Below, one piece after another: positions 8,362 to 56,158 of a stretch of 56,158 nucleotides of DNA. The notes under the pieces were generated by a model. That model saw only the letters and a program-made list of their open reading frames with translations, ran no database searches and was not told the DNA's origin. Made by a program: the position numbers and the translations under genes. Numbering within the stretch: the stretch's first letter is position 1; each line of letters starts with the position of its first letter. This DNA comes from an uncultured bacterium. Its GTDB lineage: Bacteria > Patescibacteriota > JAHJAL01. The stretch is taken from contig CALKWM010000003.1 of assembly GCA_938004065.1 (NCBI GenBank), positions 1 through 56,158 on the forward strand. Direction: 5' to 3'.

Positions 8362-8442
8362 TTTTATTCACCCCCCTTTTTTTTCTTACCATTTTTTAAA
8401 ACAAAAGGTTCGAGACAAATCTCCAACCTTTTTAACAATGCT

Positions 8443-9078
8443 TTATTCTATTTTAATTCTACCACTCCTGTTGCTGATGCAAAAACGGTCGGTATATTCA
8501 TTCAACGAATATACAAATCTGTCATTGCATCCCTGACATAGTAGAAAATGATTTTGCATCAACACCGACGCCTCATCTGAAAGCAAAAAATCTTTGTAAA
8601 AATCTTGGTATTTACAAAAATTTTTACAATCAACATTCCCCCAATTCTCCAAAACAGTATTGGCCTCCTCAACCAATTTCAACAACTTCTCCAATTTTTC
8701 CATACATTTTTTGCAACTTCGGCAATGATTAAGAAAATAACTATACGGTTTTTCTCCATACGACTTGGAAATAATTTTACGGATTTTTTTTATCAAAAAG
8801 AGACAAACTTTTTTTTGTTTATCCAATTCTTGAAAAAATCCATCCTCAAGAGAAATGATTTTTTCTAACTCTTTCGCGGAATTGTATCCAGCCATATAAT
8901 TTGCGCATTTCGCACAATCATATATGTGAAATTCAATCCACCGATATGATTCAGAGTCCAGATTTTGACCACCATTTTTATAATTACCCATCAGTTCTCT
9001 TACCACCTCACAAAGACCACCATTGGAGTTTATCAACTTATTTTGATTCTCCAAACATTTCATTTCTTCCTTAGTCAA
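8443..9078 (-). CDS. protein with three H-x3-C-x2-C (zf-HC2 / ZAS-like) motifs
   Basis: Contains HIYDCAKC, HCRSCKKC and HFLLCQGC. The start is TTG, or the internal ATG of MKCLEN. Confidence 0.55.
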   Translation of the reverse strand: MTKEEMKCLENQNKLINSNGGLCEVVRELMGNYKNGGQNLDSESYRWIEFHIYDCAKCANYMAGYNSAKELEKIISLEDGFFQELDKQKKVCLFLIKKIRKIISKSYGEKPYSYFLNHCRSCKKCMEKLEKLLKLVEEANTVLENWGNVDCKNFCKYQDFYKDFLLSDEASVLMQNHFLLCQGCNDRFVYSLNEYTDRFCISNRSGRIKIE

Positions 9079-16206: not shown

Positions 16207-16233
16207 AAATAACAAATGTACATGAACCTAACT

Positions 16234-16290
16234 CCCGCGACCTGTCCGACGTAACGTCGGACCGTTCTAACCAACTAAAACTACGACTCC
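16234..16290 (-). pseudogene. 5' tRNA-Asp-like fragment with the anticodon arm replaced by the hairpin GTCCGACGTTACGTCGGAC
   Basis: It shares the acceptor 5' strand, D-arm, variable loop and T-stem 5' strand with tRNA-Asp. The 17-nt anticodon arm is swapped for a 19-nt palindrome, and there is no T-loop or 3' acceptor strand. Confidence 0.6.
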
Positions 16291-34779: not shown

Positions 34780-35954
34780 AATAATTTTTTAATATTATCT
34801 AAAATAAATTCTTCAAATTCGCGACAAAAACGTTCTTTACTAAAAATCTTAGCTCTCTCAATTATCTTTTCACTATCAAACTCACTTCCCTCCAACCTTT
34901 CAATTGCTTCATTTAAACTTTTTACCTTCTGTCTTTCAAAAAACACACCGGTTACTCCATCAACAATCGACTCCCTGGCGCCTCCTTGACCAAACGCCAC
35001 CACCGGCTTACCTAAACTCATCGCCTCTACAGGAACTATACCAAAATCCTCGAGTGAAGGAAATATCACCGCTTTGCATTTTTTCATTATCTCCATTTTT
35101 ATTTCATCATTACCAAAACCCAAAAATTCGATATTCTCACTTCCTTGAGACAACTTTTTTACTTTCCCCAACATCGGTCCTTCACCAATCACTTTTAAAT
35201 TCCTGCCGTTTTCCACAAATGCCTCCACCACCAAATCCGCCTTCTTGTACGGCACCAATCTCCCCACAAACAGATAAAAATCCTCTTGTTTTTCTCCAGT
35301 CTTGTTTTCGTGTGATTTATTGGATATTGGATATTGAATATTGAATCTTTGATTTACTTCAACTGGTGGATAAATTACTTTCGCATCTCGCCGATAATAC
35401 TTTTTGATCCTTGATGCAATATATTTTGAATTTGCCACAAACAAATCTACTCTTTCAGCCGACATGCGATCATTCATTCTTAGATCAAACACCATTCGCG
35501 GCATAACCAGACGCACCAAGGGATTCAATATACCAAATTCCAATCTTTCACGAATATATTCATGATAGTCACTCCAATAATATCTGATCGGAGTATGACA
35601 GTAACATACATGCAAAGTTTCCGGTTTGGTAATTACGCATTTCGACTCCGCACTACTGGAACTAATTACCAAATCATATCCCCCAAAATCAAAACTTTCA
35701 AACAATATCGGTCTAAGCCAGGCAAACAGTTGATGTTTGTTGCGAAAATACGGAATTTTATTTAGCCAAGTCGTAAATATTTTCCGACCTTTTAACCATG
35801 GAAATAAATTTGGATTGCATACAGAAGTATAAATATCCGCGCTTGGGAAAATTTCCGCAATCACCTCTTCCACTTTCGCCGCTCCACCCCGGCTAGTTAA
35901 CCAATCACACACAATCGCCACCCGTAATTTTTGAAAATCATTTTCCAAATTCAT
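34776..35954 (-). CDS. glycosyltransferase family 4 (GT-B)
   Basis: Contains the EDFGIVPVEAM motif. An in-frame heptamer-repeat segment lies in the inter-domain region. Confidence 0.85.
   Translation of the reverse strand: MNLENDFQKLRVAIVCDWLTSRGGAAKVEEVIAEIFPSADIYTSVCNPNLFPWLKGRKIFTTWLNKIPYFRNKHQLFAWLRPILFESFDFGGYDLVISSSSAESKCVITKPETLHVCYCHTPIRYYWSDYHEYIRERLEFGILNPLVRLVMPRMVFDLRMNDRMSAERVDLFVANSKYIASRIKKYYRRDAKVIYPPVEVNQRFNIQYPISNKSHENKTGEKQEDFYLFVGRLVPYKKADLVVEAFVENGRNLKVIGEGPMLGKVKKLSQGSENIEFLGFGNDEIKMEIMKKCKAVIFPSLEDFGIVPVEAMSLGKPVVAFGQGGARESIVDGVTGVFFERQKVKSLNEAIERLEGSEFDSEKIIERAKIFSKERFCREFEEFILDNIKKLL
35318..35352. repeat. five tandem 7-nt units (attggat/attgaat) inside the GT4 CDS
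   Basis: Read directly; it encodes ...FNIQYPISNK.... The same unit family occurs in inverse orientation at 50397-50431. Confidence 0.8.
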
Positions 35955-36362: not shown

Positions 36363-36387
36363 AAAAAGAACCCTCCGGTTCTTTTTT
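36363..36387. terminator. bidirectional hairpin
   Basis: aaaaagaacc ctcc ggttcttttt. Confidence 0.65.
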
Positions 36388-36396
36388 ATTAATATC

Positions 36397-36417
36397 GTCC
36401 CGAGCTTATCAAGGGAC
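36397..36417 (-). repeat. GC hairpin family C copy 1 (GTCCC...GGGAC within the AATATCGTCCCGAGC...GGGACAC context)
   Basis: Related to 46556-46578, with shared flanks ATATCGTCCCGAGC and GGGACAC. Each copy abuts an ACTTGNN heptamer array. Confidence 0.7.
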
Positions 36418-36422
36418 ACACC

Positions 36423-36463
36423 ACTTGAAACTTGCTACTTTTTACTTTTACTTGATACTTGTA
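36423..36463 (-). repeat. about six tandem 7-nt units (acttgaa/acttgct/acttgat; CAAGT-N2 on the coding strand) in the 3' UTR of the sugar transferase gene
   Basis: Read directly. The array lies between the stop codon (36467) and hairpin C1. Confidence 0.8.
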
Positions 36464-36466
36464 CTC

Positions 36467-38078: not shown

Positions 38079-38087
38079 TATAATTAT

Positions 38088-38438
38088 AGCAAATTTCATA
38101 AGCCGAGTTCTGTTTCCCCCGACGTAACGTCGGGGTAGTCATCATCAATCTAGGTCGGATGTCGCCATCCTGACTCATGCGGTGGTATTCCACCTTGCAC
38201 CCAAGTAGGGTTTACCAAAATTTCATTGTCACCAATGAATTTCCGCCCAAGGCGGACTTTTCACCTTTCCTCCGACATTACGTCGGAGTAGTATCGTCTC
38301 TGTGGCACTTTCCCTACCCCGATTTCTAACATCGGGGCGGTTGCCGTTAGCAACTACTTCTTGTTAACCAAATAACCAGGTGCTCGGACTTTCCTCTCCG
38401 ACTTTATTAGCGTCGGAGCGATGACTGTTAATTTGCTA
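38088..38438 (-). ncRNA. rnpB: RNase P RNA, bacterial type A
   Basis: The minus strand carries GAGAGGAAAGTCCGAGC, GGGAAAGTGCCACAGAGA, GGTAAACCCTACTTGGGTGCAAG and CCTAGATTGATGATGAC...ACAGAACTCGGCTTAT. P1 is formed by GCAAATT/AATTTGC. Confidence 0.9.
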
Positions 38439-40655: not shown

Positions 40656-41801
<1,146 letters not shown>

Positions 41802-41908
41802 TTATTTCATTTATCTTTCATAATTCCTGATTCATCAAAATCGTCAAATTTATTTTGCGATTTTGATTCATTGTGGAGTAGGAGAGCGAGTGAGTCCTAC
41901 GAACGAGC

Positions 41909-41940
41909 GATGAGGGAGAGGATACATCCTCTCCCTCATC
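41909..41940 (-). repeat. perfect 15-bp GC-rich hairpin 5 nt downstream of tRNA-Gly
   Basis: gatgagggagaggat ac atcctctccctcatc. No U-run follows on either strand. Confidence 0.8.
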
Positions 41941-41945
41941 TTCGA

Positions 41946-42017
41946 AGCGGGCAACGGGAGTCGAACCCGTATCTCTACCATGGCAAGGTAGTATAATAGC
42001 CATTATACTATGCCCGC
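41946..42017 (-). tRNA. tRNA-Gly(GCC)
   Basis: Acceptor GCGGGCA/TGCCCGC, anticodon stem CTACC/GGTAG, loop TTGCCAT, T-arm ACGGG TTCGACT CCCGT. Confidence 0.85.
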
Positions 42018-42095
42018 AACTAATTTAAATTCTAATATATACCCACCTCAATTGCAAACTCAAAAAAAAATTCTAACTAACATTATTTTCGTACC

Positions 42096-42114
42096 GGCGA
42101 CCCTCGCGGTCGCC
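42096..42114 (-). repeat. GC hairpin family A, variant copy (GGCGACC/GGTCGCC)
   Basis: It keeps the flank context of family A (GTAC on one side, purine-rich AAG on the other), but the stem sequence is changed on both arms. Confidence 0.65.
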
Positions 42115-42145
42115 CTTTTCTCTTACTTCACCCGCCCGAGGCGAT

Positions 42146-42179
42146 TGTGCCTCGCCTGCCCGCCTTGGGAGGGGGCGCA
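42146..42179 (-). repeat. GC-rich element family B, copy 1
   Basis: The tgtgcc / ggcgca stem encloses tcgcctgcccgccttgggaggg. About 50 nt is shared with 45681-45727, immediately after a permease stop codon. Confidence 0.75.
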
Positions 42180-42189
42180 TATCTCTTGC

Positions 42190-42987
42190 TCAAGCCGCCG
42201 AATTATATCTCTTAAATCCCACTCTCCATTCTAATGCCAAAATCATTACAAACAACATAAGCATTAACAGCATTTGAACTATTTTTCCCATACCAAAAGA
42301 CCCTTCAAGCACATCGTAAATGGGGTTGGCGACCAAAAAGAAAGGAACTACATACGTCACCGCCAACTGAACCCACCCTGGATATAATTTCCTTGGATAG
42401 ATACCAAACCCCGACAAATTATCTACAAAATATACAAAAAAAGTTGCCTTCTCAATAAAAAATACAATAAAAATTGACACCCAATACAATACCGTTACCA
42501 ATACTATCGAATAAAAAAACACAAACCCAACTTGCAACAACAGATTAATATCCCAACTCAATTCCATTTTTACCAAAATATATGGCAGAAATACAAAACC
42601 ATAAACAAATGCCGGTAAAAATTCTCTCAGAGACATTTTTTGAAAAATCGTTATCCAAAAAGTATTTATTGGTCTTAATATCAACATATCTAAACCGCCA
42701 AAATGAATTTGATTAAAAATCAATCTTATCAACATCCCGGGTGTAATAATAAAAGAAAAAGACATTACCACTTGATACAAAATATAAACAAATAATATTT
42801 CATATCGACCAAATCCGGCAATAGACTCCACTCCAGAAACATCATAAATCATGTTTATTAAATACACTTCCAAAACCACCCAAGAAAGACCCGTAACAAA
42901 TCGAGCCAAAAAATCCACCTTAAAAACCATATCACGCATTATACTCATCCTTGCAATTCGCCACCAAATTTTGAAATACTTCTGCAT
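42190..42987 (-). CDS. ABC-2 type permease, paralog B1 (uncharacterized ABC transport system permease, ABC2_membrane_6/COG3694-like)
   Basis: The N-terminus is MQKYFKIWWR and the C-terminus is KRYNSAA. It has 6 TM helices, plus G-LD-L-RP and YPRKLYP motifs shared with the four other paralogs. Confidence 0.75.
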   Translation of the reverse strand: MQKYFKIWWRIARMSIMRDMVFKVDFLARFVTGLSWVVLEVYLINMIYDVSGVESIAGFGRYEILFVYILYQVVMSFSFIITPGMLIRLIFNQIHFGGLDMLILRPINTFWITIFQKMSLREFLPAFVYGFVFLPYILVKMELSWDINLLLQVGFVFFYSIVLVTVLYWVSIFIVFFIEKATFFVYFVDNLSGFGIYPRKLYPGWVQLAVTYVVPFFLVANPIYDVLEGSFGMGKIVQMLLMLMLFVMILALEWRVGFKRYNSAA

Positions 42988-43003
42988 AAATATAATTTTA
43001 TTT

Positions 43004-43032
43004 CCCGTACGGGCGGACCCATGTGTCCGCCC
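43004..43032 (-). repeat. GC hairpin family A copy 1 (CCCGTAC + GGGCGGAC/GTCCGCCC)
   Basis: It lies within a 69-nt block (42981-43049) identical to 45600-45668. Confidence 0.85.
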
Positions 43033-43033
43033 T

Positions 43034-43072
43034 CTTATTTCTTACTTCTTAATTCTTATTTCTTATTTCTTG
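43034..43072 (-). repeat. heptamer array (AAGAAAT/AAGAATT/AAGAAGT on the coding strand), 5-6 units, starting at the stop codon of paralog B2
   Basis: Plus strand reads cttattt cttactt cttaatt cttattt cttattt cttgcta. Confidence 0.85.
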
Positions 43073-43864
43073 CTAGGCTGCCGAACTATACCTCCTCAAA
43101 CCATCTCTCCACAATAAAAGATATATCATAACTACAATGGTTGTCATCGATATCATCAACCAAAAATCACCCCAAGTATACGTATTCTTTATTATCATAA
43201 AAACAGGATTAATAATCAAAAACATCGGGATCAAATATACAAGCATATTTTGTAATATTTTCGGATAAAATTCCCTGGGATATCTGGTAATATCTTGCGT
43301 ATTGTGGATAAACCATCGTAAAGATTTAAATCTCGGCCAGATAAACCACAACAAACTACTAATCCAAATCATACAAAAAAACAAAATATTCGAAAGTATC
43401 AAAACATATAATAATTGCATAAACCTGGCGATTTCAAAGACAGAAAAAACCTGTTTGATTACCGAAAAGAAAAATAATAGATAAACTACAATAATCAAAC
43501 CAACCGTCATACTAACTTTTTGCATACTGGTAACAAAAACGGTATTTATGGGCTTTATTAAAATAAAATCCAGATTACCTGTAAATATTTGATTGGCAGC
43601 CAAATCAAGACTCGGGTAAACAAATACAAACTGAAACCCCATCATAATTTGTATCATATAAAACACGAACAAAAATTCAGCTTCTGTATACCCTGCAATA
43701 TTGTCTAATCCAGAGGCAGTAAAAAATAATTTGATCAATAAAATTTGAACTGCCATATAAACAAAAGTCGTAACCAATCCCAACAAAAAATCCAATTTAT
43801 AAACCATTTCTTTCATCATACTCATCCTCGCCACCCGCCACCAGATTTTGAAATATTTCTGCAT
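43073..43864 (-). CDS. ABC-2 type permease, paralog B2
   Basis: MQKYFKIWWR...GLRRYSSAA, with the same architecture as the other paralogs. Confidence 0.75.
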   Translation of the reverse strand: MQKYFKIWWRVARMSMMKEMVYKLDFLLGLVTTFVYMAVQILLIKLFFTASGLDNIAGYTEAEFLFVFYMIQIMMGFQFVFVYPSLDLAANQIFTGNLDFILIKPINTVFVTSMQKVSMTVGLIIVVYLLFFFSVIKQVFSVFEIARFMQLLYVLILSNILFFCMIWISSLLWFIWPRFKSLRWFIHNTQDITRYPREFYPKILQNMLVYLIPMFLIINPVFMIIKNTYTWGDFWLMISMTTIVVMIYLLLWRDGLRRYSSAA

Positions 43865-43900
43865 AATTTTTTCTTCTTATATTTCTTTTTTATTTTTTCT

Positions 43901-43939
43901 CTTACTTCTTACTTCTTAATTCTTATTTCTTATTTCTTG
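43901..43939 (-). repeat. heptamer array (AAGAAAT family), 5-6 units, after the stop of paralog B3
   Basis: cttactt cttactt cttaatt cttattt cttattt cttgcta. It degenerates into an A-rich tract reaching the next ATG. Confidence 0.85.
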
Positions 43940-44734
43940 CTAGGCTGCCGACTCATACCTTCGTAAACCATTTACAAACATCAAAACATAAACACTAATC
44001 AAAACAAAAACCATCAACAAGGTTAAAATAAAAATGTTCACGTCATAATTACCTGAGATTACATCATAAACCGGGTTAACTACCAAAAATAATGGCGCTA
44101 CAAAAATCAAAAAATATTGCATCGCATCCGGATAAACTTTTCTGGGATATTTATTGACATCATATGCATAACCCAAAAACCATCGTAGTGCTCCAAATTT
44201 TGGCCAAAAAAACCAAATCAAGCTGGAAATAAAAAACATCAAAGAATAAATTACAAAAGATACAATCATTACCCACAAAATTAACAACCAAATTTGCAAA
44301 CTGAAATTATAATCAAAGTAAAAATAAACCCCGAAAAACAAAGCAACATTCAATAACATCACACTCAAAGCATCCATCAACCAACTGTTAAAAATCGTTG
44401 TATATAGCATTACATTAACGGGCCGAATCAAGAACATATCCAATTTACCACTATATATACTATCAGCCAATCTATGAACAGATGGTATTATATTTATATA
44501 CAAAGAGAACAACAACATTTCTGACAAACACATTACGAGCAAAAAGTCCGATCGTGAATATCCTTCGATAGTTTGTACTCCACCTGATTCAAATAAAAAA
44601 TAAACAAAAGCAAAGTAAATCAACATATACACCGAATTTGCAACCAATCCAACCAGCCAATCGGTTTTATATATCATCCTGATCATTACCCCCACTTTAA
44701 TCACCCGCCACCAAATTTTGAAATACTTCTGCAT
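43940..44734 (-). CDS. ABC-2 type permease, paralog B3
   Basis: MQKYFKIWWR...GLRRYESAA. Confidence 0.75.
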   Translation of the reverse strand: MQKYFKIWWRVIKVGVMIRMIYKTDWLVGLVANSVYMLIYFAFVYFLFESGGVQTIEGYSRSDFLLVMCLSEMLLFSLYINIIPSVHRLADSIYSGKLDMFLIRPVNVMLYTTIFNSWLMDALSVMLLNVALFFGVYFYFDYNFSLQIWLLILWVMIVSFVIYSLMFFISSLIWFFWPKFGALRWFLGYAYDVNKYPRKVYPDAMQYFLIFVAPLFLVVNPVYDVISGNYDVNIFILTLLMVFVLISVYVLMFVNGLRRYESAA

Positions 44735-44774
44735 TTTTTCTTATTTTATTTCCTGTTTCTTTTTTCTCTTTCTT

Positions 44775-44814
44775 CTTATTTCTTATTTCTTATTTCTTAC
44801 TTCTTGCTACTTGC
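44775..44814 (-). repeat. heptamer array (AAGAAAT family), about 6 units, after the stop of paralog B4
   Basis: cttattt x3, then cttactt, cttgcta and cttgctc. Confidence 0.85.
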
Positions 44815-45606
44815 TCACGACGCCGACTCATATCTCGGTATACCATTTCGCCACATTAAAACATTAATCAATAATTGCACTAACAAAACACCTATAATAA
44901 TCATCAAAAATTGCAAATCAAATGTACCATCAATTATTTTGTATATCGGACCAGCAACCAAGAAAACAGGCACTGCAAATGTAAATATCCATTGCATAGA
45001 CCGGGGAAACAACTTGGCCGGTTTTTGTCCCATCCGATCCGCTATCCTTACAAAATTATAATAAGCATCAAATTTTGGAAAATAAAAATACATATAAGCG
45101 CTATTCCAATACAAAAAATACAATATTAAATATGAACTAATAACCACAAACAAAACTAAACCAATGTTTTCTAATGTCCATTCAAAAGAAACTTTGTGAT
45201 AAATATAAATCAAAATAACCAAAAAAAACGATAATCTTAAAATCAAACCGGCTACCCAAGATCTCTGATTATGTATCAAGAAATTACTTTTAGGTCTAAC
45301 TAAAAATAAATCCAACTGTCCCATAAAAATCATATTTCTAAGTCTAACTGCATTTGGATAAACCGACACAGCCGATAAAGTCATTATCAGTTCACTAATG
45401 ATATAAACTAGATAAAAATCGTACATTGTCATTCCAACTATTGTTTCCGAATCTCCAGCTGTAAACAACAAATAAATATATAACAAACTCACAAACTGAA
45501 AAATAAATTCACTGACATTCAAGCAAATATAATCCAAACCATACATCATCTCCGTCTGCCAATTTATATTCATTAACCGCCACCAGATTTTGAAATATTT
45601 CTGCAT
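44815..45606 (-). CDS. ABC-2 type permease, paralog B4
   Basis: MQKYFKIWWR...GIPRYESAS. Confidence 0.75.
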   Translation of the reverse strand: MQKYFKIWWRLMNINWQTEMMYGLDYICLNVSEFIFQFVSLLYIYLLFTAGDSETIVGMTMYDFYLVYIISELIMTLSAVSVYPNAVRLRNMIFMGQLDLFLVRPKSNFLIHNQRSWVAGLILRLSFFLVILIYIYHKVSFEWTLENIGLVLFVVISSYLILYFLYWNSAYMYFYFPKFDAYYNFVRIADRMGQKPAKLFPRSMQWIFTFAVPVFLVAGPIYKIIDGTFDLQFLMIIIGVLLVQLLINVLMWRNGIPRYESAS

Positions 45607-45622
45607 AAATATAATTTTATTT

Positions 45623-45651
45623 CCCGTACGGGCGGACCCATGTGTCCGCCC
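45623..45651 (-). repeat. GC hairpin family A copy 2
   Basis: Identical to 43004-43032 and sits within the 69-nt identical block. Confidence 0.85.
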
Positions 45652-45680
45652 TCTTATTTCTTACTTCTCCCGTCATCAGG

Positions 45681-45714
45681 TGCGCCTCGCCTGCCCGCCT
45701 TGGGAGGGGGCGCA
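45681..45714 (-). repeat. GC-rich element family B, copy 2
   Basis: The tgcgcc / ggcgca stem encloses the same 22-nt loop as copy 1. Confidence 0.75.
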
Positions 45715-45724
45715 TATTTCTTGC

Positions 45725-46519
45725 TCACGCTGCCGAACCATACCTCCTCAGTCCATATTTAAACAACACCAAAAACAACATTACGAACATTCCGGTAACC
45801 AAAAATATTTGCCAAAAATCATCCCACCCCCAACTTTTATCCAATATTTCATATACCGGATTGATAATTAAAAGCATCGGAAATAAAAATACTAAAAAAT
45901 TTCTCATTACGGTTGGATAAATCTTTTTTGGATACTTGGTGACTTCAAATGATTCCCCGACAAATACCCACGCCGCATTAAGCTTCGGCCATATAAAACA
46001 AACTATGATTGATAACCACTTCAACAAACTGTAAATTAGAATGCTATTTAAAACGACAAAAATTATGGCAAACCACTCCCAGTATTCAAAATTCATTACC
46101 CCTGTAAAATACAAATACGGAAAAAACACCAACATATACAAAATAATTACATGTGACTGAACAGACACAAAATGTTGAAACATCATCAAAAATTTCGCAT
46201 TAGCCGGCTTTACCAGCATAAAATCCAAACCTCCGGTATATATTTGCCGCCAAACCAATCTGGCGTTTGGTTGCACAAAAACAAAAATAAAGTAAATCAA
46301 AACCTGTGTCATTGCAAACACTAGATATACTTCATTTAAATCAAACCCAGCTATTTCTTTTACATTACCAGCTTGAAAAAAATATTTAATAAACAGCACT
46401 TGCGTTAAAAAATACACCACTGATGTTACCGATCCAAAAATCATATCAGTCCGATACATCATTGTCTGTTGCACACTCATCCTCATCACCCGCCACCAAA
46501 TTTTAAAATAACTCCACAT
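45725..46519 (-). CDS. ABC-2 type permease, paralog B5
   Basis: MWSYFKIWWR...GLRRYGSAA. Confidence 0.75.
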   Translation of the reverse strand: MWSYFKIWWRVMRMSVQQTMMYRTDMIFGSVTSVVYFLTQVLFIKYFFQAGNVKEIAGFDLNEVYLVFAMTQVLIYFIFVFVQPNARLVWRQIYTGGLDFMLVKPANAKFLMMFQHFVSVQSHVIILYMLVFFPYLYFTGVMNFEYWEWFAIIFVVLNSILIYSLLKWLSIIVCFIWPKLNAAWVFVGESFEVTKYPKKIYPTVMRNFLVFLFPMLLIINPVYEILDKSWGWDDFWQIFLVTGMFVMLFLVLFKYGLRRYGSAA

Positions 46520-46555
46520 ACTTATTTTTTCATTTCATATTTCTTCATAAATATC

Positions 46556-46578
46556 GTCCCGAGCGCTAGTCGAGGGAC
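46556..46578 (-). repeat. GC hairpin family C copy 2
   Basis: ATATCGTCCCGAGCgctagtcgaGGGACAC; compare 36391-36420. Confidence 0.7.
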
Positions 46579-46583
46579 ACCAT

Positions 46584-46618
46584 ACTTGATTCTTGAAACT
46601 TGTTACTTGAAACTTGCT
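46584..46618 (-). repeat. heptamer array (CAAGTTT/CAAGTAA/CAAGAAT on the coding strand), 5 units, after the stop of permease A
   Basis: acttgat tcttgaa acttgtt acttgaa acttgct. Confidence 0.85.
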
Positions 46619-46625
46619 TATTCGC

Positions 46626-47417
46626 TCACCCTCCCACCAACTCCAATCTCTTTAATCCTCGATTCCACACCAATGTGAGTAACAAATACAATCCAACCAT
46701 CCAAGCAATCTGCACCGCAAAATGCACCACCAATTCATCATAACTATACTTTCCCAAATATATTGACGCCGGCAAGTTAAAAATCGCAACAAAAGGTGTA
46801 TATTGCATCACATTTTGGATGATCTCGGGCATAAATTGTACCGGTATCATCTTGCCCGCAAAAAAGCTGACAATAAAATTAAACGCCCAGATAATATTGC
46901 CCGTCTCCACTGTCCAAAAGGCGATTGAGCCCAACATTGTGTACAAAAACATACTGGAAAACAACGCAATAATCACCATCAATACTGTCAAAATCAAATA
47001 CATCCAATTGCTTGGACCAACAAAAATATCCGTAAAATACACCAAACCAAACACCGGCAACACAAAGAAAAACATCGACATTAAATTTTGAGAAATATTT
47101 TTTGCAAAATAAATATATAAACTATTCAAAGGTAATATGAGATAATTAGCGATATTCCCATGCTGAACACCATCTTTAATTTCTTCAAAAGTACTGACTG
47201 CCAAAAAATGCCGGAACAATTCCACCAGCAAAAAATACGTTAGCAATTCCTTGAAAGTAAATCCGGCAATATCACCACTCTGTGCATAAACCGCTTTCCA
47301 GAGATAAATCATGATCAAGAAACCCAAACTGCGCATCAAAATTTCCGCAAAAAAATTTGCTTTAAACGCCAGCACTGATTGAATTTGATTAACAAAAAAC
47401 CTTCGGTACTTATTCAT
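46626..47417 (-). CDS. ABC-2 type permease, type A (COG4587-like partner permease)
   Basis: A 6-TM protein with a distinct N-terminus (MNKYRRFFVNQ) and C-terminus (RGLKRLELVGG). Confidence 0.75.
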   Translation of the reverse strand: MNKYRRFFVNQIQSVLAFKANFFAEILMRSLGFLIMIYLWKAVYAQSGDIAGFTFKELLTYFLLVELFRHFLAVSTFEEIKDGVQHGNIANYLILPLNSLYIYFAKNISQNLMSMFFFVLPVFGLVYFTDIFVGPSNWMYLILTVLMVIIALFSSMFLYTMLGSIAFWTVETGNIIWAFNFIVSFFAGKMIPVQFMPEIIQNVMQYTPFVAIFNLPASIYLGKYSYDELVVHFAVQIAWMVGLYLLLTLVWNRGLKRLELVGG

Positions 47418-47441: not shown

Positions 47442-47477
47442 AAGTTTGAAAAGTTTGGAAAGTTTGCTAAGTTTATT
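47442..47477. repeat. four tandem 9-nt units (aagtttgaa/aagtttgga/aagtttgct/aagtttatt) between the ATPase and permease A
   Basis: Read directly. The last unit overlaps the ATPase stop codon. Confidence 0.8.
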
Positions 47478-48474
47478 TCCCTTCCGCAAATATCTCCGCA
47501 ATCACATCTGCCGCTTGTTTCTCTTGTACATCGATATCGTCAATTTTGAATTTCTTTACCAATTTCGCCAAGACATCGGAGACATTTTCCCTCGGTATCG
47601 CAATCTTGGCACTCAATTTATCAAACTCCAAAACCTTGCCATATTTCAACAAATCCTTTTTCAATACTTTCTCATCAAAAACCAAATCAATATATTTCTC
47701 CCGCGCGTATTTTTTCACCAATCCGGCATAACTGTTATCATAGATCTTTTCACCCTTGTTGATAATTATCACCCGCTCACACAATTCTTTGATATCATCC
47801 ATATAGTGACTGGTCAAAATAATCGTCGCCTTCTTTTCTCGATTATATCTCTTGATAAAACCCCGCACCGCTTTTTGCGCCGTCACATCCATCCCGATCG
47901 TTGGCTCATCCAAAAATATCACCTGTGGATCATGCAGCAACGCCGCAATCAACTCACATTTCATTTTTTGCCCCAATGACAACTTTCTCACCGGTACTTC
48001 CAAAAATTCTTTTACCTCCAGCAAATTTGATAGATAATCCAAATTGGCCCGAAATTTTTTCTCCGGTATTTCATAGATATCGCGATTGAGTAGAAAACTC
48101 TCAATCGCCGGCAAATCAAACCACAACTGTGATTTTTGCCCCATGACCATCGAAATTTTCCGTTTATAATCATCCTGGTGATCCCACGGATAATATCCCA
48201 ACACCTTGGCACTACCCGAAGTGGGATACAAAATCCCCGACAACATCTTTAAAGTTGTCGTCTTGCCCGCCCCATTTGGACCCAAAAACCCGATCAATTC
48301 TCCTTTTTCAATATCAAATGACACACCATTCACTGCGTGTACATACTGTTTTTCGCTTTTAAATAAACTCTTAACCGAATTCCAAAAACCTTCCGCTTTT
48401 TTCGTCAGCTCAAAGGTTTTCGTCAAATTCCTAACAATTATCGCTTTCGCCATAATTTCCATCCTTTTTATCAA
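47473..48474 (-). CDS. ABC transporter ATP-binding protein (COG4586-like, with C-terminal extension)
   Basis: Walker A GPNGAGKTT, signature LSLGQKMK, Walker B VIFLDEPT. Confidence 0.9.
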   Translation of the reverse strand: MIKRMEIMAKAIIVRNLTKTFELTKKAEGFWNSVKSLFKSEKQYVHAVNGVSFDIEKGELIGFLGPNGAGKTTTLKMLSGILYPTSGSAKVLGYYPWDHQDDYKRKISMVMGQKSQLWFDLPAIESFLLNRDIYEIPEKKFRANLDYLSNLLEVKEFLEVPVRKLSLGQKMKCELIAALLHDPQVIFLDEPTIGMDVTAQKAVRGFIKRYNREKKATIILTSHYMDDIKELCERVIIINKGEKIYDNSYAGLVKKYAREKYIDLVFDEKVLKKDLLKYGKVLEFDKLSAKIAIPRENVSDVLAKLVKKFKIDDIDVQEKQAADVIAEIFAEGK

Positions 48475-48556: not shown

Positions 48557-48608
48557 TTTTTCATATATCGTCGCAAACTTGTCACTATTATTTTGCTTCA
48601 TTTCTTCC

Positions 48609-48657
48609 GTAATTCGTAATTCGTAATTCGTAATTTTTTACTTATTACTTATTACTT
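48609..48657 (-). repeat. seven tandem 7-nt units (gtaattc x3, gtaattt, tttactt, attactt x2) in the ABC-F 3' UTR
   Basis: Read directly. The array lies between the stop (48679) and the terminator. Confidence 0.85.
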
Positions 48658-50396: not shown

Positions 50397-50431
50397 ATCC
50401 AATATACAATATCCAATACGCAATATGCAAA
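50397..50431. repeat. five tandem 7-nt units (atccaat/atacaat/acgcaat)
   Basis: Read directly. This is the inverse-orientation relative of the array inside the GT4 gene. Confidence 0.8.
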
Positions 50432-51868: not shown

Positions 51869-51912
51869 ACACCAATCGGTGGATACGCCTTGGGCGCATA
51901 CTTCTATCAAAA

Positions 51913-52066
51913 TGGACCTTAAAGGGACTTGAACCCATGACCTGTCCGACGGTCGCCTTGCGGCTCGTCGGACCGCTCTAGCCAATAAATGGACCTTGAA
52001 GGGACTTGAACCCATGACCTGTCCGACGGTCGCCTTGCGGCTCGTCGGACCGCTCTAGCCAATAAA
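51913..52066 (-). repeat. two tandem 77-nt tRNA-Ala-derived units lacking the 5' acceptor/D-stem strand and carrying a 30-nt hairpin in place of the anticodon arm
   Basis: Each unit reads TTTA TTGGCTAGAGCG [GTCCGACGAGCCGCAAGGCGACCGTCGGAC] AGGTC ATGGG TTCAAGT CCCTT CAAGGTCC A. The period is exactly 77 nt. Confidence 0.85.
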
Positions 52067-52140
<74 letters not shown>

Positions 52141-52673: not shown

Positions 52674-54746
52674 TCACAACACCTCAAATATCCTCCTCAC
52701 CATTTTTTCCCCCACCACCTTCACTACCTTTTCCTCCCCGGCATCAATTATCCCCTTTATACTACCAAATTCTTTCAACAATTTCCTTTTTGTTTTTGGA
52801 CCCAATCCCTCAATCCGATCCAAAACCGATTTTCTCACCTCTTTCTTTCTTACGATTCTCTGATAAGAAACCGCAAACCGATGCACTTCATTTCTGATAC
52901 TTTGCAACAACAAACCCGCTAACTCCCCCTTCTCAATATCTAACTTCTTATATTCAAAAACCGTACTACCAGACAACCTGTCTTTTTCATGATTTTCTTT
53001 ATCACTTTTTTCTTGCTTCTTTGTTCTTGTTTCTTGATTTTCCTCACTTGAAACTTGATACTTGAAACTTAATACTTGATCTCTCCCTGCCCACACCTCC
53101 TCCTCTCTCTTTGCCAAACTTATTACTGGCACATCTAAACCCAACTCATCCAACACCCTTAAAACTACCCCCAACTGTCCTTTACCGCCATCAACCAATA
53201 TCAGATCGGGATATATCCATTTCTTACTATCTTTTTTTACTTTCGCAAATCTTCTCCTGAAAACCTCTTTCATCGCCCCAAAATCATCCTGCCCCTGAAA
53301 ACTTTTGATTTCAAACCGTTTATAATAACTTTTATTGAATCCTCCTTTCCACTTCTTCATCTGCTCAAACATTTTCTCTTTCTTTTCTTTTTTTATTTTT
53401 TTATGTTTATTTTTTTCCTTGATACTTGAAACTTGAAACTTGTTACTTGATTTAAGTTCCCAAACCACCATCGCCCCCACCACTCCACTATCTCCTAAAT
53501 TCGAAATATCATATCCTTCAATTCTAAAAACATCCTTAATTTTACTAAATTTATAACTATCCCAATTCAAATCATGTAACTTATTTATCAAATCTACAAT
53601 TCCCAATCCCTCATTTCTGGCAAATTTTATCACCGATTGTTGTCTCAAATATTCCATCTTGGCATTTTTATTTGCCAATTCGATCATTTGTTTTTTTTCA
53701 CCAATTTTTGGAAATTCAAACTTAATTTTTTTCTGATACTCCACTTCCATATACTCACACAAAATTTTTTGTTCAGTCAATTCCAAGGGTAGATACACAT
53801 ATTTTGGATAATCCTGTGTCCTGGCATAATAATCAACTACAAATCTGGCAAACATCTCCGGCAAATCCTCGCCCCTGTAACTCACGGCCTGCATATTGCG
53901 AATATCAACAATTTTTCCATCCCTAACCACAAGCAAAGTAACTACCCATTTATTTTTTTGTCCATAATACCCTACCACATCCACATCAATTTTTTTGGGA
54001 CTAACCACCTTCTGTCCCTCGACTATTTGATTGATATCCCGTATACGATCACGCAAAATTGCCGCCTGCTCATAATTTTTCTCATTTGCAGCCTCCTTCA
54101 TTGCATTTTTGAAAATATCAATCACATGATGAGCATTTCCCCGTAAAAACTTCTTCAAATCCGATATCATTTCTAAATACACTTTCTGTACACTCAAATC
54201 ACCCCATGCCGTTTGTGATCTCTTCTGAAATAATTCTTTCCCCGCCACACTATCCATCGGCGACACGCCTGATGAATTTTGATAAGTAAAAAAAGAAAAT
54301 ATCCTGTTTATCGAACGTAAAATCTTGTTTACTTTTAAACCGTTTGTATAAGGACCAAAATAACTCGCCCCATCTTTTTGTACTCTTCTAACAGTTATTA
54401 CTCTGGGAAAATAATCATTGGTGATCTTGATATAAATATAATTTTTGTCATCTTTCATCAAGATGTTATATTTCGGACGATATTTTTTGATCAAAGTCGT
54501 CTCCAACATCAACGCCTCCAATTCAGTATCAGTCACCAACCACTGTAAATCATCAATTTTTTCCACCAATCTTATAGTCTTGATATCAGTTTGTTCACGA
54601 TTGAAATAACTTTTTACTCTCTTGGATAAATCAAGCGCCTTACCCACGTAAATTGGTTCTTCCTGTTTATCTTTCATGATATATACTCCGGGAGATTTTG
54701 GCAGAGTCTTCAATCTTGATTCAATTTTTGAGTTATTTTTTTGCAT
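52674..54746 (-). CDS. uvrC: excinuclease ABC subunit C, with two repeat-derived insertions
   Basis: Contains GIY-YIG (GVYIMKD...IYVGKA), the endonuclease domain (IEGYDISN, LILVDGGKGQ) and a C-terminal HhH2. At 690 aa it is longer than the usual roughly 600 aa. Confidence 0.9.
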   Translation of the reverse strand: MQKNNSKIESRLKTLPKSPGVYIMKDKQEEPIYVGKALDLSKRVKSYFNREQTDIKTIRLVEKIDDLQWLVTDTELEALMLETTLIKKYRPKYNILMKDDKNYIYIKITNDYFPRVITVRRVQKDGASYFGPYTNGLKVNKILRSINRIFSFFTYQNSSGVSPMDSVAGKELFQKRSQTAWGDLSVQKVYLEMISDLKKFLRGNAHHVIDIFKNAMKEAANEKNYEQAAILRDRIRDINQIVEGQKVVSPKKIDVDVVGYYGQKNKWVVTLLVVRDGKIVDIRNMQAVSYRGEDLPEMFARFVVDYYARTQDYPKYVYLPLELTEQKILCEYMEVEYQKKIKFEFPKIGEKKQMIELANKNAKMEYLRQQSVIKFARNEGLGIVDLINKLHDLNWDSYKFSKIKDVFRIEGYDISNLGDSGVVGAMVVWELKSSNKFQVSSIKEKNKHKKIKKEKKEKMFEQMKKWKGGFNKSYYKRFEIKSFQGQDDFGAMKEVFRRRFAKVKKDSKKWIYPDLILVDGGKGQLGVVLRVLDELGLDVPVISLAKREEEVWAGRDQVLSFKYQVSSEENQETRTKKQEKSDKENHEKDRLSGSTVFEYKKLDIEKGELAGLLLQSIRNEVHRFAVSYQRIVRKKEVRKSVLDRIEGLGPKTKRKLLKEFGSIKGIIDAGEEKVVKVVGEKMVRRIFEVL
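53046..53080 (-). repeat. five tandem ACTTGNN heptamers inside uvrC
   Basis: acttgaa acttgat acttgaa acttaat acttgat encodes ...SFKYQVSS.... Confidence 0.85.
53424..53451 (-). repeat. four tandem ACTTGNN heptamers inside uvrC
   Basis: acttgaa acttgaa acttgtt acttgat encodes ...NKFQVSSIK.... Confidence 0.85.
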
Positions 54747-55950: not shown

Positions 55951-56024
55951 GCATCCGTAGCTCAACTGGATAGAGCGTCTGGCTTCGGACCAGAAGGCTG
56001 AGGGTTCGAATCCTTCCGGATGCA
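55951..56024 (+). tRNA. tRNA-Arg(TCG)
   Basis: GCATCCG TA GCTC AACTGGATA GAGC G TCTGG CTTCGGA CCAGA AGGCT GAGGG TTCGAAT CCTTC CGGATGC A. No CCA is encoded. Confidence 0.9.
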
Positions 56025-56060
56025 TTTAAGAGCAAAATAATTATTTGCTCAGTTTAGTCT

Positions 56061-56158
56061 AGGGTTCGCCCGGGCATTCGCCGGGCGTGGGGCGGATGCC
56101 CCACGAATCCTTCCGGATGCATTTAAGAGCAAAATAATTATTTGCTCAGTTTAGTCTA
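56061..56158 (+). repeat. partial tRNA-Arg copy (T-arm to 3' end plus 37-nt trailer) with two GC hairpins inserted in the T-loop; period 97 nt, cut by the window edge
   Basis: 56105-56158 is identical to 56008-56061. The insert reads CGCCCGG gcattcg CCGGGCG followed by TGGGGC ggat GCCCCA (56067-56103). Confidence 0.85.

Follow-up and report, generated by a model that had tools for sequence, protein, structure and literature searches.

Heptamer arrays and tagged palindromes in the spacers of a permease gene array from an uncultured Patescibacteria bacterium

The intercistronic spacers of a permease gene array were analyzed in a 56,158-nucleotide stretch of DNA from an uncultured bacterium of the Patescibacteriota (contig CALKWM010000003.1 of assembly GCA_938004065.1; the whole stretch is termed the window). 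The array is transcribed from the minus strand and comprises six tandem transporter genes, an A-type permease and five paralogous B-type permeases, that are separated by short spacers containing runs of 7-nt units and GC-rich hairpins. These spacers probably are composites of slippage-derived heptamer arrays and palindromes that resemble repetitive extragenic palindromes (REPs), which have been spread between the junctions by gene conversion, rather than a dedicated regulatory device, with possible side effects on mRNA stability. One of the palindromes, hairpin A, is identified from its sequence as a likely GTAC-tagged relative of the widespread GTAG-tagged REP palindromes. The locus extends an already known type of repetitive DNA to a further host lineage, and does not represent a new system or mechanism.

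Organization of the permease spacers

Alignment of the spacers revealed a common plan in which the conserved end and stop codon of the upstream gene are followed by (G)CAAG, an optional GC cluster (hairpin B), a run of (TAAGAAW)n units, either hairpin A or a purine-rich filler, ACRGGAAATAAWAT... and the ATG of the next gene. The individual spacers are arranged as follows.

46520-46625, minus strand: spacer 1; CAAGTWW heptamer array at 46581-46616 and hairpin C at 46556-46578, then GATATTTAT.
45607-45724, minus strand: spacer 2; after a single heptamer unit come hairpin B (45681-45714), a further, small hairpin (45669-45680) and a linker of two heptamer units (45652-45668).
Spacer 2, ATG-side part, minus strand: hairpin A at 45630-45651, GTAC tag at 45626-45629 and a 23-nt leader up to the ATG.
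44735-44814, minus strand: spacer 3; heptamer array at 44766-44814 and a purine-rich tract that keeps the A-flank motif ACAGGAAATAAAAT; no hairpin.
43865-43939, minus strand: spacer 4; heptamer array at 43898-43939 and a degenerate purine-rich tract at 43865-43897; no hairpin.
42988-43072, minus strand: spacer 5, between the paralogs at 43073-43864 and 42190-42987; five TAAGAAW units at 43033-43072.
Spacer 5, ATG-side part, minus strand: hairpin A at 43011-43032, GTAC tag at 43007-43010 and a 23-nt leader up to the ATG at 42987.
42018-42189, minus strand: terminal spacer, behind the final paralog; hairpin B', a GC composite (~42130-42180), is followed by hairpin A' (42096-42114) and GTAC (42091-42094).

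The hairpin coordinates in an initial annotation of this DNA were all correct on re-examination. The annotation also proposed that the intercistronic elements are modular, which the spacer alignment bears out, but the arrays are not specific to the operon or to intercistronic positions as they also occur in frame within genes. Moreover, its statement that every spacer starts with a heptamer array holds for most spacers, but not for spacer 2 and the terminal spacer, in which a single unit (GCAAGARAT) precedes hairpin B and approximately two units follow it. Hairpins are present or absent among spacers that otherwise align: spacers 3 and 4, which are 88% identical over the full length (75 nt), carry purine-rich filler where spacers 2 and 5 possess hairpin A, and spacers 4 and 5 agree at 40 of 41 array positions, including the order of variant units. 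The terminal spacer is 88% identical to the orthologous region of the related locus L008, and a T-run and a promoter-like site for tRNA-Gly follow its hairpin A'. The spacer between the ATPase and A-type permease genes that precede the array, just beyond the range of the initial annotation, contains 8-9-nt units.

Hairpin A and the tagged REP palindromes

Hairpin A (GGGCGGAC/GTCCGCCC in spacers 2 and 5, with the variant GGCGACC/GGTCGCC in the terminal spacer) forms three perfect stems in the window and reads 5'-GTAC-GGGCGGAC-N6-GTCCGCCC on the plus strand. The element consists of an 8-bp stem and a loop of 4-6 nt, spans 22 nt plus the tag, and folds with ~-11 to -17 kcal/mol over its variants (~-15 to -16 kcal/mol for the window copies; z-score of -4.2 for spacer 5), which places it among the GC-rich stem-loops of 20-40 bp that typify REPs. 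Five distinct versions were compared: that of window spacers 2 and 5, which recurs in spacer 1 of the related contig L005, and those of the window terminal spacer, L005 spacer 2, the L006/L007 terminal spacer and the L008 terminal spacer. Over the five variants, 97.5% of stem cells were paired and three of the eight pairs had changed on both sides. None of 500 shuffles reached a pairing or covariation score as high, and slid controls fell to 35-62% pairing. Thus, the stem has been preserved through changes in both arms, as anticipated when a covariation check was first suggested. The adjacent GTAC is invariant in all five variants. A search for the stem plus GTAC on both strands of all lineage loci produced matches solely on the sense strand and solely in permease-array spacers, and every copy of hairpin A is situated between co-directional genes or at an operon end, in keeping with the extragenic location of REPs.

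The hairpin was also found in unrelated genomes. The pattern GGGCGGAC-N6-GTCCGCCC-GTAC, which specifies 20 bases, occurred in six unrelated IMG/VR contigs compared to a rough chance estimate of less than ~1 in that collection, the CTAC-tagged form of this first-stem pattern in at least 120 IMG/VR stretches, and the second stem, GGGCGACC-N5-GGTCGCCC-[CG]TAC, in 72. Among the fetched loci the tag was CTAC in 145 cases and GTAC in seven for the first stem (7/152), with corresponding values of 77 and 17 for the second stem (17/94). The loops of the window copies, ACATGG and GCGAG, each recurred six times in the fetched contigs. Contigs bearing an A-like hairpin ranged from 38 to 71% G+C and contained neighboring sister palindromes, for example, GTAG-GGGCGCAC-CTGCGT-GTGCGCCC. 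As CTAC after a stem is equivalent to GTAG before the stem on the other strand, which is the layout of GTAG-tagged REPs, hairpin A has the appearance of a GTAC-tagged relative of that wider family. The GTAG-tagged REPs were defined and surveyed previously, lie mostly behind genes, are thought to be RNA elements and sometimes are located within genes, including repair genes (Di Nocera et al., 2013; PMC3733652). Hairpin A shares with them a GC-rich palindrome of 20-40 bp that bears an unpaired tetranucleotide tag at one end (Bertels and Rainey, 2011; PMC3116915), a position behind coding regions between co-directional genes where the element probably is transcribed, and a stem and loop that are found elsewhere with the canonical CTAC (= GTAG) tag. 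In contrast to those elements, the tag here is GTAC, which is a minority form elsewhere, and the host is an AT-rich Patescibacteria genome.

The initial annotation interpreted the altered arms in the terminal spacer as compensatory stem changes. The structure is indeed kept through changes in both arms, but GGGCGGAC and GGGCGACC are both common, widespread subtypes, and replacement by another family member therefore is as likely as stepwise compensation in place, which is neither the sole explanation nor, probably, the principal one. The same annotation proposed a search for a RAYT-like gene elsewhere in the genome. The proposal was apt in that hairpin A combines a conserved tetranucleotide tag with a match to GTAG palindromes, and the element would have been seeded by the single-strand-DNA (HUH/RAYT-type) route that spreads such palindromes.

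Several observations weigh against a REP-derived origin of the hairpins. The genes in the window and the 10-kb flanks (~70 kb) did not include a Y1/HUH transposase (RAYT). The GTAC tag is one base removed from the GTAG (or CGTC) definition. In the same ~70 kb, only three copies of hairpin A were found, all in one operon and in one orientation, which differs from the high copy number of REPs; each copy is single, and none forms the inverted doublet that characterizes a REPIN. The core of hairpin B had no matches in IMG/VR, and a pattern for hairpin C matched at the estimated chance rate and was uninformative. In addition, the distance from the stem of hairpin A to the ATG is exactly 23 nt in four spacers (window spacers 2 and 5, and L005 spacers 1 and 2), and the hairpin has been kept at the orthologous operon end in three species (window, L008 and L006/L007), which also fits a selected cis-regulatory element.

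The latter two features would be accommodated if hairpin A was a locally evolved, selected stem-loop in the 5' leader of the B-type permeases that acts in cis on translation or cistron stability, with its likeness to REPs a product of convergence. Alteration of both arms of the stems kept at the operon end would agree with this proposal, as would the absence of a Shine-Dalgarno sequence from the B-type permease genes the presence of two G.U pairs in hairpin A solely on the gene-sense strand, and folding of all five variants as well or better as sense RNA (by 0.6-3.6 kcal/mol). Nevertheless, a cis-regulatory origin is considered unlikely: the same stem, loop and tag recur across numerous unrelated contigs that are GC-rich, the hairpin is missing from two of the five paralog leaders, and the more distant relatives L003, L015 and L016 are devoid of hairpin A. 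With regard to the earlier assertion that the GC-rich stems reflect structural selection, the stem is preserved, but the hints for selection at the RNA level are limited to the two G.U pairs and slightly better sense folding. Two further candidates were rejected. A transcription-factor operator was ruled out as the half-sites covary rather than being conserved, and a restriction-site effect on the tag was discounted as GTAC is mildly under-represented at 0.81 of expectation.

No U-tract follows the hairpins on the sense strand, where the stem of hairpin A is succeeded by GUACGGGAAAU, and the hairpins thus do not resemble intrinsic terminators of the operon; ordinary U-tract terminators occur elsewhere in the window. 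In the L008 fold, pairing of the array with a U-run located downstream encloses the terminal hairpin and gives a long terminator-like structure (z = -5.1). On the antisense strand, hairpins A and B do look terminator-like because the complement of the array is T-rich: a pattern scan flagged all three A and both B copies on the plus strand, and 13 terminator-like sites were counted in the region compared to 4.3 +/- 1.9 in shuffled sequences. Nevertheless, it is improbable that the two hairpins are intrinsic terminators of antisense (plus-strand) transcription, as the G.U pairs become A.C mismatches on that strand, which weakens the L006 variant from -10.7 to -7.1 kcal/mol, neither strand has a T-rich tail at hairpin C, the conserved GTAC serves no purpose in a terminator, and plus-strand genes or promoters did not exceed chance matches. 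Rfam matches above threshold in the window were confined to tRNAs and RNase P RNA, with nothing credible at E<=5 in the region 41800-46700.

If REP-like palindromes in or beside the arrays constitute the second kind of repeat in the spacers, the transcribed hairpins (~-15 to -17 kcal/mol for hairpin A) should fold in the polycistronic mRNA. Intercistronic REPs act as stabilizers in E. coli operons, e.g., at malE-malF, and by analogy the hairpins would most likely act as exonuclease barriers or processing punctuation. Hairpin B would protect the 3' end of the upstream cistron, and hairpin A would cap the downstream cistron 23 nt ahead of its ATG. In spacer 2, hairpin B is located 11 nt past the stop and is connected by a short single-stranded purine linker to hairpin A, a layout that would suit cleavage in the linker with a hairpin capping each product. 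The E. coli elements likewise are stable GC hairpins between cistrons of ABC transporters and lack a sense U-tract. Unlike there, one type of hairpin (B) is placed 3' of the preceding gene, and another (A) keeps a constant spacing to the start codon that follows.

Heptamer arrays and exchange between junctions

The 7-nt periodicity is pronounced. At period 7, 121 overlapping 35-nt windows displayed at least 78% lag-7 identity compared to 0-5 for the other periods between 4 and 12, and arrays also were reported by Tandem Repeats Finder. With stricter settings six arrays remained, of which four were located in non-coding DNA, which makes up 12% of the window. The units conform to YAAGWWW and are of two types, TAAGAAW at six or more sites and CAAGTWW at four. 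A census of 7-nt periodicity relative to stop codons, of the kind proposed with the initial annotation, was run over six lineage loci and disclosed the expected stop-proximal bias: among 39 co-directional spacers that were 70 nt or longer, 12 possess a period-7 array within the 45 nt that follow the stop, compared to 0 of 39 within the 45 nt that precede the start, although these counts are not independent as paralogous and orthologous spacers are included. At least five different unit types lie behind the counts. Periods 5, 6, 8, and 9 yielded zero arrays in the same 39 spacers. The placement of arrays on the coding strand stood up less well. Arrays do occupy the stop-proximal ends of spacers, but a TAAGAAR array between the L27 and methyltransferase genes, both of which are on the other strand, keeps the same DNA-strand orientation. 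When read on the G-rich strand, 15 arrays were purine-rich, 13 were intermediate and none was pyrimidine-rich.

Relatives with the same gene order and extreme strand skew (L003, L006-L008, L015, and L016) possess arrays at the same spacers, often with other units, including CAAATYT, CAATKAA, and decamers. Orthologous arrays in the window, L005 and L008 vary in unit number and order, in spacers that are also rearranged. The arrays are best described as a trait of the lineage and not of this operon. A period-7 array lies within 70 nt of 13 of 192 tagged hairpins in unrelated contigs compared to 18 of 576 random control sites, which is a modest enrichment, and some of the arrays near hairpins in those contigs share units with the lineage (CAATTRA in L114 and CAAATTT in L084). 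The arrays furthermore are found in frame within two genes of the window.

53346-53456, minus strand: UvrC insertion 1, residues 408-444 (37 residues); CAAGTWW array plus purine-rich tract, built like a spacer.
52965-53090, minus strand: UvrC insertion 2, residues 530-571 (42 residues); CAAGTWW array plus degenerate CAAGAAM units.
35316-35350, minus strand: in-frame array in a GT4 glycosyltransferase; four TTCAATA/TCCAATA units (TYCAATA) in an inter-domain linker.

UvrC insertion 2 is confined to this species and a 96%-identical strain, and the Thermotoga structure 2NRT has no insertion at either UvrC site. The position of insertion 1 is a variable Lys-rich loop in all Patescibacteria relatives. 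A CAATATC-type unit, as in the GT4 array, also was observed in spacers of L003 and L016 and, reversed, at 50397-50430. At 48603-48657, behind the ABC-F gene, two different perfect arrays adjoin one another, (AAGTAAT)x3 followed by (AATTACG)x4, whereas decamers (CAAACTTAAT) occupy the orthologous spacer of L003.

The distribution of the arrays fits a mutational process that may act everywhere and whose products survive where they are tolerated. Arrays would expand and decay by slipped-strand copying and occasionally would persist in frame in tolerant protein loops. The simplest explanation for the stop-proximal bias may be that constraint acts on the leader of the next gene but not on the DNA directly behind the stop.

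A functional interpretation, in which the YAAG-every-7-nt arrays after stops and the GTAC-tagged hairpins jointly form operon punctuation, with arrays read by an oligomeric RNA-binding protein or by post-termination ribosomes and hairpins serving as processing or stability sites, is viewed as very improbable. If true, the elements would have been domesticated for gene-dosage control of alternative permease subunits and would be more than mere repetitive DNA. Narrower still is the suggestion that the arrays are platforms for an oligomeric RNA-binding protein that reads AAG every 7 nt and controls either the adjacent hairpin or ribosome reloading after termination. HutP recognizes NAG-N4-NAG-N4-NAG, and the strict 7-nt spacing of YAAG, the onset of arrays at stop codons beside hairpin A, and the conserved presence of arrays at orthologous spacers would accord with such a platform. 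That arrangement is highly doubtful, as units vary among relatives and CAAATYT and CAATKAA contain no AAG, arrays also are located within genes and between genes on the opposite strand, a candidate protein was not found, and among the long simple repeats of bacteria in general no unit length is as common as the heptamer (MacGregor, 2015; PMC4679880, citing Mrazek, 2007). It is scarcely credible that the B-A composite encodes a small basic peptide or is a selenocysteine insertion sequence (SECIS)-like element for recoding of the TGA stop that precedes hairpin B by 11 nt: beginning with an ATG located 11 nt behind the TGA, a frame of 27-35 codons does stay open across both hairpins, in three versions that in a reading of the sequences differ in length by multiples of three, but peptide conservation ends after the first 10 codons, stops are rare in GC-rich DNA, TAG-ending paralogs stop at the same residue, Rfam gave no match and spacer 5 has hairpin A but no such frame.

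The preferred reading, that slippage arrays and REP-like palindromes were spread by conversion, draws on the relationships among the junctions. The initial annotation recorded that 42981-43049 and 45600-45668 are identical (69 nt) between highly diverged paralogs, which was confirmed, and the block can be extended to 91 nt with two synonymous mismatches.

42959-43049, minus strand: shared block, copy 1; both mismatches fall within the first 8 codons.
45578-45668, minus strand: shared block, copy 2.

Nucleotide identity among the paralogs is 45-54% in the gene bodies, 89% in the first ten codons and 68% in the last ten, compared to 84-100% in the spacer blocks. The identical block implies a recent non-reciprocal transfer, in agreement with the mobility or gene conversion that was first suggested. 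The conserved coding ends also are kept in other species, where they differ synonymously, and hence are protein-constrained; they are in a position to supply homology that flanks each spacer. This pattern points to modules that were copied between junctions by gene conversion or unequal recombination, anchored on the RRYxSAA-stop and MQKYFKIWWR ends. Gene conversion between junctions explains the identical block, the common order of variant units and the patchy occurrence of hairpins.

Reshuffling of the paralogs is visible among relatives. The L008 array ends after the 43940-type gene with the same terminal hairpin region, and the number of paralogs thus varies between species. In L005 (1-1421; ENA ERZ15185023), a contig from a related strain that is 92-99% identical to the window, the paralogs are ordered 44815-like, 42190-like and 43940-like, hairpin B is present in a different version, and an A' hairpin occupies the place of the filler in the window. 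The L005 evidence is weaker because the contig is 1.4 kb with very low coverage, and an assembly chimera at the repeated junctions is possible.

Related repeats, genomic setting and further hairpins

Small hairpin repeats embedded in tandem heptamers have reportedly been described by Elhai and colleagues in Nostoc and relatives (Genome Res 18:1484, 2008). These repeats are said to be hairpins of ~21-27 nt within heptamer arrays, with nested insertions, as in hairpin B here, with presence or absence between related spacers, and with occurrence in RNA-gene contexts. Correspondingly, hairpins A and C abut arrays, and spacers 3 and 4 carry filler. The phylum and the sequences differ. The window arrays also bear comparison with the short tandemly repeated repetitive (STRR) heptamers of cyanobacteria. 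Dispersed arrays of the heptamer TAACTGA occur in Beggiatoaceae, Cyanobacteria, and Bacteroidetes, where their role is unknown (MacGregor, 2015; PMC4679880). In both cases, 7-nt units form short dispersed arrays that are mostly intergenic with occasional copies in open reading frames, and both TAAGAAW and CAAGTWW are present as three or more tandem copies at several dispersed sites. In contrast to TAACTGA, whose arrays lie just before starts, the arrays here are positioned just after stops, and the units are purine-rich YAAGWWW with an orientation that follows the extremely G-skewed strand. Rickettsia palindromic elements and yeast mitochondrial GC clusters are small repeats that invade AT-rich genomes and that can lie in frame in protein genes. 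Unlike these elements, the in-frame insertions in the window are heptamer arrays and not palindromes, and no sequence relationship is apparent.

The locus places tagged REP-type palindromes and heptamer arrays, which are best known from Proteobacteria and Cyanobacteria, in a small, AT-rich and strand-skewed Patescibacteria genome. There, the arrays remodel proteins by in-frame insertion, as in UvrC and the glycosyltransferase, and a tandem permease family appears to undergo concerted evolution and reshuffling that are driven by the repeats. That one 22-nt hairpin, loop included, is common to very different genomes bears on how such elements spread. The locus thus is a useful natural example of repeat-driven genome plasticity in uncultivated bacteria.

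The genes of the permease array are located as follows, with TGT behind tRNA-Gly.

47473-48474, minus strand: ABC ATPase.
46626-47417, minus strand: A-type ABC2_membrane_6 permease.
45725-46519, 44815-45606, 43940-44734, 43073-43864, and 42190-42987, minus strand: five B-type permease paralogs.
41946-42017, minus strand: tRNA-Gly.

The B-type paralogs share ~30% amino-acid identity with each other around a constant N-terminus, MQKYFKIWWR, and a constant C-terminus, RRYxSAA-stop. Public gene calls place all five B-type starts (42190-46519) 11-16 codons late, at an internal Met behind AAGGA-like sequences; the MQKYFKIWWR start has no Shine-Dalgarno sequence. Reading of TGA as glycine (code 25) was ruled out as code 11 leaves the long housekeeping frames uninterrupted and the paralogs with a TAG stop terminate at the same residue. 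Integron attC-like cassettes likewise were excluded: there is neither an integrase nor a GTTRRRY core, and the apparent cassettes are paralogs.

The window has 35.6% G+C and a (G-C)/(G+C) value of ~-0.38 along its whole length. The absolute skew is extreme (~0.38-0.50) in the window and in L003, L006-L008, L015, and L016, and genes on the plus strand are no exception; no skew was seen in the distant relatives L009-L014. The sequence is identical to parts of contig DAIUKQ010000002.1 (218,679 bp) of GCA_036848155.1 and to two ENA metagenome contigs. Housekeeping genes in the window include gyrA/B and those for IF-2, Der, UvrC, TGT, RNase P RNA, and DUF5656. The nearest named relatives of UvrC, at 49% identity, are annotated as "Patescibacteria group bacterium". 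A TGT search of GTDB representatives recovered distant genomes only (42-53% identity), devoid of GC skew and arrays, and the lineage therefore lacks a close GTDB representative. A permease profile search of the genome contigs found no relative, and a metagenome search produced three loci, of which L015 and L016 have arrays without hairpin A and L017 is unrelated. Literature searches with the hairpin sequence and accession numbers returned nothing relevant. Positions 1-133 include a direct repeat of 55 nt whose exact copies are spaced by 78 nt and which probably corresponds to a 26-residue repeat of a protein that is cut by the left end of the window.

The pairings of hairpins B and C reported in the initial annotation hold. 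The B copies at 42146-42179 and 45681-45714 differ at 1 of 34 positions, the element being composite with copies that diverge through insertion of one GC hairpin inside another. The C copies at 46556-46578 and 36397-36417 are embedded in ~100 nt of 83% identity that start in both cases at a TGA stop. The second copy is part of a composite located directly behind the TGA of a sugar transferase gene, ahead of a canonical bidirectional terminator and 10 kb from spacer 1. A further pattern, D, matched IMG/VR at the estimated chance rate and was uninformative.

36375-36466, minus strand: second CAAGTWW array (36423-36465) with hairpin C (36397-36417).
51884-51898, minus strand: small B-like hairpin (TATGCGCC CAA GGCGTA) behind the tRNA-like repeats; its minus-strand form contains a G.U pair.

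GC hairpins also were noted at RNA genes. Directly behind tRNA-Gly, a perfect 13-bp hairpin (GATGAGGGAGAGG...CCTCTCCCTCATC) without a U-tract is situated at 41909-41940, where L008 has a different hairpin. On the minus strand at 51910-52140, two 77-nt tandem copies of the 3' two-thirds of tRNA-Ala lie behind an intact tRNA-Ala(GGC) at 52067-52140. Both partial copies span the D-loop to the acceptor 3' strand, with the anticodon arm replaced by a GC hairpin, GTCCGACG-AGCCGCAAGGCGAC-CGTCGGAC. A tRNA-Asp-like pseudogene (16210-16290, minus strand) just upstream of an intact tRNA-Asp has GTCCGACG-TTA-CGTCGGAC in place of the anticodon arm, which is the same stem as in the tRNA-Ala fragments. At 56007-56158, and in L018 at 8420-8660, tRNA-Arg(TCG) precedes a series of copies of its own 3' end with GC hairpins (CGCCCGGGCATTCGCCGGGCG, GGGGCGAATGCCCC) in the T-arm, and the public assembly has a run of N at this array. 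Finally, the class A RNase P RNA (38083-38438) contains stems of the NCCGACG...CGTCGGN type at 38117-38135 and 38270-38288 that are similar to the hairpin found in place of the anticodon arm in the tRNA-like fragments.

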